Part shown: positions 10,497 to 10,681 of the stretch, in pieces | How positions within the stretch are numbered: position 1 is the first letter of the stretch | Layout of the letters: each line of letters starts with the position of its first letter | Assembly: GCF_001447785.1 (NCBI RefSeq) | Contig: NW_015160247.1 | Span: 186,001-246,979 of the forward strand | Direction: 5' to 3' | DNA: 60,979 nt | Origin: Gekko japonicus | Lineage: Eukaryota | Program-made: the position numbers and the translations under genes | Notes under the pieces: model-generated | Told to the model about the DNA's origin: nothing | The model's database searches: none | The model's input: only the letters and a program-made list of their open reading frames with translations

Positions 10497-10681
10497 ATAT
10501 ATTGAGATCTTCAAAAGTAGTAAAAGTGAAATCTGAGGATTCTATGACCCACCATGAAGAATGATGGGACAGCGACCTGGACCATATGATAGACCAATGG
10601 GAGGAAGAGGGGGTTATTATGGAGCTGGGCGTGGAAGTATGTATGACAGAATGCGTCGAGGAGGTGGTGGATATGACGGTG
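10497..10681 (+). CDS. HNRNPH3: hnRNP H3 exon 4 with two in-frame [62 protein letters not shown]
   Basis: actcag|ATAT acceptor, GGTG|gtatgt donor, 185 nt; TGA at 10534-10536 and 10555-10557; internal alternative donor at 10636/10637. Confidence 0.93.

Follow-up and report, generated by a model that had tools for sequence, protein, structure and literature searches.

Two in-frame TGA codons in the assembled HNRNPH3 gene of Gekko japonicus: probable consensus errors in a working gene

Two TGA codons, seven codons apart, interrupt exon 4 of HNRNPH3 in a 60,979-nt stretch of the Gekko japonicus assembly (hereafter, the window), and they provoke a question: has this gecko lost full-length hnRNP H3, or does the assembly misrepresent an intact gene? 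A sequence-only reading of the window had reported both codons, and the frame that the canonical acceptor at 10497 imposes on exon 4 confirms them: positions 10534–10557 read TGA GGA TTC TAT GAC CCA CCA TGA, with both TGA triplets in frame. As assembly text, the stops are thus certain; whether the animal’s DNA carries a T at each place is a separate question. From the sequence comparisons, we conclude that the stops are most likely not present in the animal.

The earlier assignment to HNRNPH3 (hnRNP 2H9) was borne out by exon 2, whose top matches are squamate hnRNP H3 proteins at 100% identity, and by the remainder of the reading frame. The reference used was P0225, a 341-aa H3 protein common to Paroedura picta, Heteronotia binoei, and Euleptes europaea, in which Pfam places two RRM_1 stretches, the first at residues 20–87. 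The window encodes the same residue as P0225 at 291 of the 294 readable codons, and the three differences are R98*, R105*, and G280S; no HNRNPH3 protein with Ser280 occurred among the 376 proteins fetched, and none of the members listed for the H3 protein clusters was marked as this animal’s own, so that an intact copy from this species did not turn up either. The gene thus shows the two quasi-RRM domains and Gly/Tyr-rich regions of the family, together with an N terminus of the H3 type. The conserved neighbor is present as well: RUFY2 lies tail to tail with HNRNPH3 on the minus strand, and the two genes carry adjacent locus tags in a seal record (GH733_001988 and GH733_001987). Orthologues named H3 were retrieved from sharks, bony fish, amphibians, mammals, birds, turtles, crocodilians, and squamates.

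Eight coding exons of HNRNPH3 are readable, with canonical introns (Table 1). The peptide of exon 3 had no match anywhere in the window, and its expected place is taken by 252 N, a gap that ends 535 nt short of the first stop. When exon 3 was replaced by 139 N in the model, the coding sequence closed at 341 codons plus TGA. With an exon of that length, the two TGA triplets become codons 98 and 105 of 341, just past the first RNA-binding domain, as the sequence-only reading had calculated. Runs of at least four G occur nine times in 10000–10496 (497 nt) and three times in 9310–9747, that is, in the introns around exon 3; they are likely hnRNP H/F sites that would control the skipping of this exon.

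Table 1. Positions of the HNRNPH3 exons, the two stops, and other features in the window
Feature	Position	Strand	Remarks
CpG island, likely promoter and first exon of HNRNPH3	900..2050 (approx.)	.	GC 0.59, CpG observed/expected 0.96; promoter role inferred
Tandem duplication in HNRNPH3 intron 1, 479 nt	2478..3439	.	one mismatch
Tandem copy in HNRNPH3 intron 1, 52 nt	8788..8895		exact
HNRNPH3 exon 2, codons 1–38	9191..9309	+	ATG at 9195; AG/GT canonical; 38/38 residues as in P0225
Gap of N at the expected place of the 139-nt exon 3	9748..9999	.	right flank rich in G runs
HNRNPH3 exon 4, 185 nt, bears both stops	10497..10681	+	AG/GT canonical
TGA at codon 98	10534..10536	+	squamates Arg; mammals examined Lys
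TGA at codon 105	10555..10557	+	squamates Arg
Weak in-frame AG, possible acceptor	10558..10559	+	AAG, pyrimidine share 0.58; normal site CAG, 0.68
ATG ATG (Met107, Met108), opens the 235-codon downstream frame	10561..10566	+	start as in P0129, P0127
HNRNPH3 exon 5	11046..11132	+	
HNRNPH3 exon 6	11750..11865	+	
HNRNPH3 exon 7, second RNA-binding domain	12659..12794	+	
HNRNPH3 exon 8, site of G280S	15078..15158	+	sole missense difference
HNRNPH3 exon 9	15240..15329	+	
HNRNPH3 exon 10, coding part	15491..15567	+	natural stop TGA at 15565–15567
RUFY2	21480..57487	-	two exons missing
Palindrome, 613-nt arms, 1-nt spacer	56206..57432	.	begins exactly where the GT donor of the RUFY2 exon is expected

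We then asked which codons the stops have replaced. The sequence-only reading took CGA (Arg) turned into TGA by CpG deamination as the best explanation of both, and it had proposed an alignment with lizard orthologues as a check. Arg occupies both positions in 7/7 squamate H3 proteins checked; the proteins of three other gecko genera likewise read Arg there, and no H3 protein from the same genus was among the matches listed. The H/F family at large is similar. Among the 215 proteins with the anchoring motif (of 256 fetched), position 98 is Arg in 188, Lys in 24, and something else in 3, and position 105 is Arg in 203, Lys in 11, and His in 1; because protein collections cannot contain stops, these tallies show conservation and not an absence of losses. 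The comparison was made with proteins only, and the ancestral codon could have been CGA or AGA, the latter also being one step from TGA. In mammals, the orthologues P0146 and P0147 carry a Lys at position 98, which is one step from AGA and not from CGA. The Arg half of the proposal therefore stands, and CpG deamination is left plausible rather than established. Since CpG transitions are far more frequent than other changes, CGA to TGA would be the likelier route. If the changes were C to T, both would be silent in the exon-3-skipped frame, a property that follows from their codon position and carries no weight.

Several candidate explanations could be rejected. The near-identity to the gecko protein P0225 rules out a long-dead pseudogene, and the eight coding exons with canonical introns rule out that the locus itself is a retrocopy or processed pseudogene. 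A reassigned genetic code is excluded by the natural stop, which is TGA, and by the nature of the gene, which is vertebrate and nuclear. Selenocysteine at the TGA codons is made improbable by the Arg found at both sites in orthologues.

Does the remainder of the gene bear marks of decay? Outside the two stops, HNRNPH3 does not appear to be decaying. All 15 readable splice sites are canonical, no frameshift is present, and the 292 sense codons hold a single missense difference; the relaxed selection of a unitary pseudogene is thus not seen. Six of the eight CGA-type sites are intact (in-frame CGA at codons 20, 111, 139, 206, 262, and 283), as is the CpG island upstream. A neutral model (transition 2, transversion 0.5, CpG weight 1–15) was used to gauge what decay should look like. 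It yields 7.9–19.5 missense changes per nonsense change, and under it the probability that at least two of three amino-acid-changing differences are stops is 0.007–0.035. The 59 readable codons upstream of Met107 contain no missense change, and thus the 5' part shows no sign of release from selection; the probability that the first two amino-acid changes in this part would both be stops is 0.004–0.029. If the first stop is assumed to have inactivated the gene not long ago, a further stop as the following amino-acid change has a probability of 5–11%, an appreciable figure. These figures therefore rule out an old loss and accommodate a very recent one.

A very recent loss would mean that the stops are real and fixed, with full-length hnRNP H3 gone from this gecko and either its paralogues covering for it or only the form starting at Met107 being made. 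We give this reading a slim chance. The CGA-type sites are hit at two of three positions upstream of Met107 and at none of five downstream (Fisher p = 0.11), as it would predict, and no exon 3 was seen in the window; the clean upstream codons, the low probability of two stops there, and the intact protein of other geckos (P0225) weigh on the other side. Hnrnph2 knockout mice are reported to be normal, with Hnrnph1 compensating (PMC10348767), so the family tolerates some loss, whereas lost genes are described as depleted in essential genes (PMC7671337). The stops resemble the mammalian unitary losses validated in that report in being in-frame stops at an orthologous, intron-containing locus. 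A loss is validated there when the ancestral allele is missing from five reads or when a sister species shares the change, and by this standard the HNRNPH3 stops do not qualify as a gene loss. No gecko was reported to have lost HNRNPH3, or to carry it as a pseudogene, in the titles and abstract openings searched, which included few subscription journals.

The sequence surrounding this otherwise conserved gene is gapped and defective. Besides the gap, intron 1 of HNRNPH3 contains tandem copies of 479 and 52 nt that are likely assembly duplications. The neighboring RUFY2 is damaged at two places. Its exon at 57487–57433 has no donor site and runs straight into a palindrome; the exon that should follow (residues about 53–92 of P0294) is absent from an interval without N. 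A second exon (residues about 476–517 of P0294) is absent from the N-free interval 28808–38123. The Gekko japonicus protein P0270, which equals the window in every genuine RUFY2 exon and mismatches it only at alignment ends that cross introns, also lacks residues matching this second exon and has intron-derived residues instead. The palindrome may be a fold-back artefact or a real inverted duplication with a deletion. Its arms differ at 14 of 613 positions (2.3%), by seven transitions and seven transversions, and only two of the transitions are of the CpG kind. Such mismatches could fit thin read cover but also a real, aged rearrangement; the share of transversions and the scarcity of CpG transitions hint at read error rather more than at age.

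Could the window instead be a young dead duplicate, either a segmental duplication or a degenerating sex-linked copy, with the working HNRNPH3 on another copy? A decaying haplotype could carry the lesions of both genes, including the RUFY2 exon lost at a fold-back junction whose arms have diverged. Yet RUFY2 contains no stop in the 528 codons read and retains 7/7 of its CGA codons, and it differs from the congener protein P0268 at only five internal positions; HNRNPH3 itself has one missense change, and the makeup of the arm differences points, if weakly, to read error rather than age. We consider a dead duplicate quite doubtful. The state of RUFY2 also implies that single-base errors are not common in the window.

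We favor the explanation that both T’s are assembly consensus errors, and that a working HNRNPH3, presumably with Arg at codons 98 and 105, probably underlies them. The sequence-only reading had left the reality of the stops undecided and had listed an artefact among its checks. Three observations lean to artefact: two of the three differences are stops, the gene is otherwise nearly identical to that of other geckos, and assembly defects lie nearby. Counting against error, RUFY2 gives no sign of frequent single-base errors, and Arg-to-TGA changes at two sites are exactly what real CpG decay would produce. Such a pair of changes, separated by 21 nt in otherwise unaltered sequence, resembles a small segment that came from a template no longer kept intact by selection. 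In the scheme that we propose, a dead HNRNPH3 copy at another genomic site, for which a retrocopy is the simplest candidate, would have lost two neighboring methylated CpG sites. The two changes, flanked by 37 nt of identical exon upstream and by unchanged exon downstream, would form one bubble for a short-read assembler; if the assembler kept the path of the dead copy, both T’s would be merged into exon 4. We put this source at somewhat less than an even chance. The other conceivable source, bases miscalled where read cover is thin next to the gap, seems unlikely. By either route, the animal would make a normal 341-aa protein. If exon 3 were repeated, this could account in part for the gap as well, although the adjacent G runs would explain it equally well.

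Errors of this general type have precedent. According to Kim and colleagues (PMC9516821), the classes of error in older assemblies include premature stops that are false, exons that are missing, and N within coding sequence, and the present locus shares with those short-read errors the stops in a conserved gene, the N in place of an exon, and the missing exons of a neighbor. Premature stops were among the rarest types of false loss in that report. Its errors were confirmed with reads, whereas the HNRNPH3 stops are known from the assembled sequence, and retrocopy merging does not figure in the passages of it used here.

The clustering of the stops and the lack of other decay would be accounted for equally well if both stops sat on a genuine null allele of the sequenced animal, probably a heterozygote, and the assembler kept that allele. 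On such a short-lived allele, 21 nt apart, they would most simply have arisen together, for instance by clustered deamination of cytosines or by gene conversion with a dead copy as donor, as two independent hits on an allele under adverse selection would be improbable. Because this requires a rare event in the one animal sequenced, we regard it as doubtful. The mRNA of such an allele would be removed by nonsense-mediated decay (NMD). A stop more than about 50–55 nt upstream of the last exon junction generally triggers this pathway, and the first stop lies 655 nt upstream of that junction; the prediction of NMD made by the sequence-only reading thus holds if the stops are real.

What else could be made from a transcript with these stops? 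The first stop lies just behind the first RRM_1, and solved constructs of the domain align as far as residue 98. The ATG ATG that follows the second stop does open a frame of 235 codons, close to the length estimated earlier, and this frame keeps the Gly-rich region, an R-x-x-P-Y import motif, and the second RNA-binding domain. Only a short upstream frame allows efficient re-initiation; behind a frame of 97 codons, the re-initiation on which the earlier reading had speculated would be unlikely. The 235-aa product would not be new: it matches short isoforms annotated in other reptiles and birds, and 15 of the 376 proteins fetched start at this Met cluster, including the gecko protein P0129. The R-x-x-P-Y sequence has been described as a nuclear-import motif of the hnRNP H/F family (PMC10348767).

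Such annotated forms would favor a fixed loss if they were real proteins. In human cells, the HNRNPH3 transcript without exon 3 is reported to be an NMD substrate (PMC4233243), and the same skip in the gecko gene would lead to a stop after 60 codons. For these reasons, we infer that the short H3 forms in the databases are mostly frame calls on exon-3-skipped, doomed RNA, which would remove their support for a fixed loss. The gecko transcript would resemble that human isoform and the 220–240-aa sauropsid isoforms (P0129, P0127, and P0139) in the Met cluster at which the downstream frame starts; it differs in that the early stop of the human isoform arises from regulated splicing (PMC4233243), whereas the gecko stops are two point changes in the main frame. 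That the stops are fixed, that at most the 235-aa form without its first RNA-binding domain is made, and that selection still guards codons 107–341 appears, as a combined claim, improbable.

The T’s might also be genomic and the protein rescued, whether U-to-C editing restored CGA at both codons, both stops were read through, or the AG at 10558–10559 served as acceptor; we hold the likelihood of any such rescue to be very low. This AG stands directly after the second stop and would allow both stops to be skipped in frame. It is a weak site, and its use would delete codons 86–106, the end of the first domain, which fall largely inside the solved constructs. Read-through is favored by contexts of the CUAG type, and the stops are followed by GGA and AGA. 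Both stops take the place of Arg, as do those that U-to-C editing repairs. Editing of this kind is known from the organelles of ferns and hornworts, and we know of none in vertebrate nuclear mRNA; repair of both codons by this means would be categorically new in vertebrates and is exceedingly improbable.

The distinction between these readings has consequences. If the stops are an artefact, they serve only as a warning, since gene-loss screens that use this assembly would wrongly report HNRNPH3 as lost and RUFY2 as truncated. If they are real and fixed, there would be a living vertebrate without full-length hnRNP H3. This gecko, a model for regeneration, would then be a natural knockout or domain deletion of a core splicing factor that is otherwise conserved between sharks and mammals. 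It would provide a direct test of the extent to which hnRNP H/F paralogues can stand in for hnRNP H3, and would show whether the short isoform of the annotations exists as a protein at all.

Sequencing runs that match positions 10020–13000 were also considered. Among the 24 matches listed, 20 contain this stretch or part of it (X19 and X20, with a share of 0.07, were left out). Seventeen are runs of one organism, from six studies, and hold 0.42–0.92 of the sampled words; ten are guessed to be RNA. Since exons make up only about 18% of the stretch, the matching runs are intron-containing RNA or DNA. They show that the locus exists but say nothing on the two bases, and one run may be the source.

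A few minor observations were made along the way. The literature searched yielded nothing usable on gecko retrocopies, sex chromosomes, or 2H9 isoforms. In Anolis, a 171-aa “hnRNP H3-like” protein (P0124) is encoded on a contig other than that of the main gene and has four changes relative to the C-terminal part of P0002; at least one lizard thus has a second H3 copy. The introns of RUFY2 contain three older inverted repeats at 29271–29560, 28301–28465, and 26141–27324, which are 82–86% complementary and are probably mobile-element remnants. Finally, open frames are found on the minus strand at 60210–60977, 33703–34803, and 58668–59382 and on the plus strand at 25643–26059; presumably, these are reverse-transcriptase fragments of CR1/L2-type LINEs, which they resemble.
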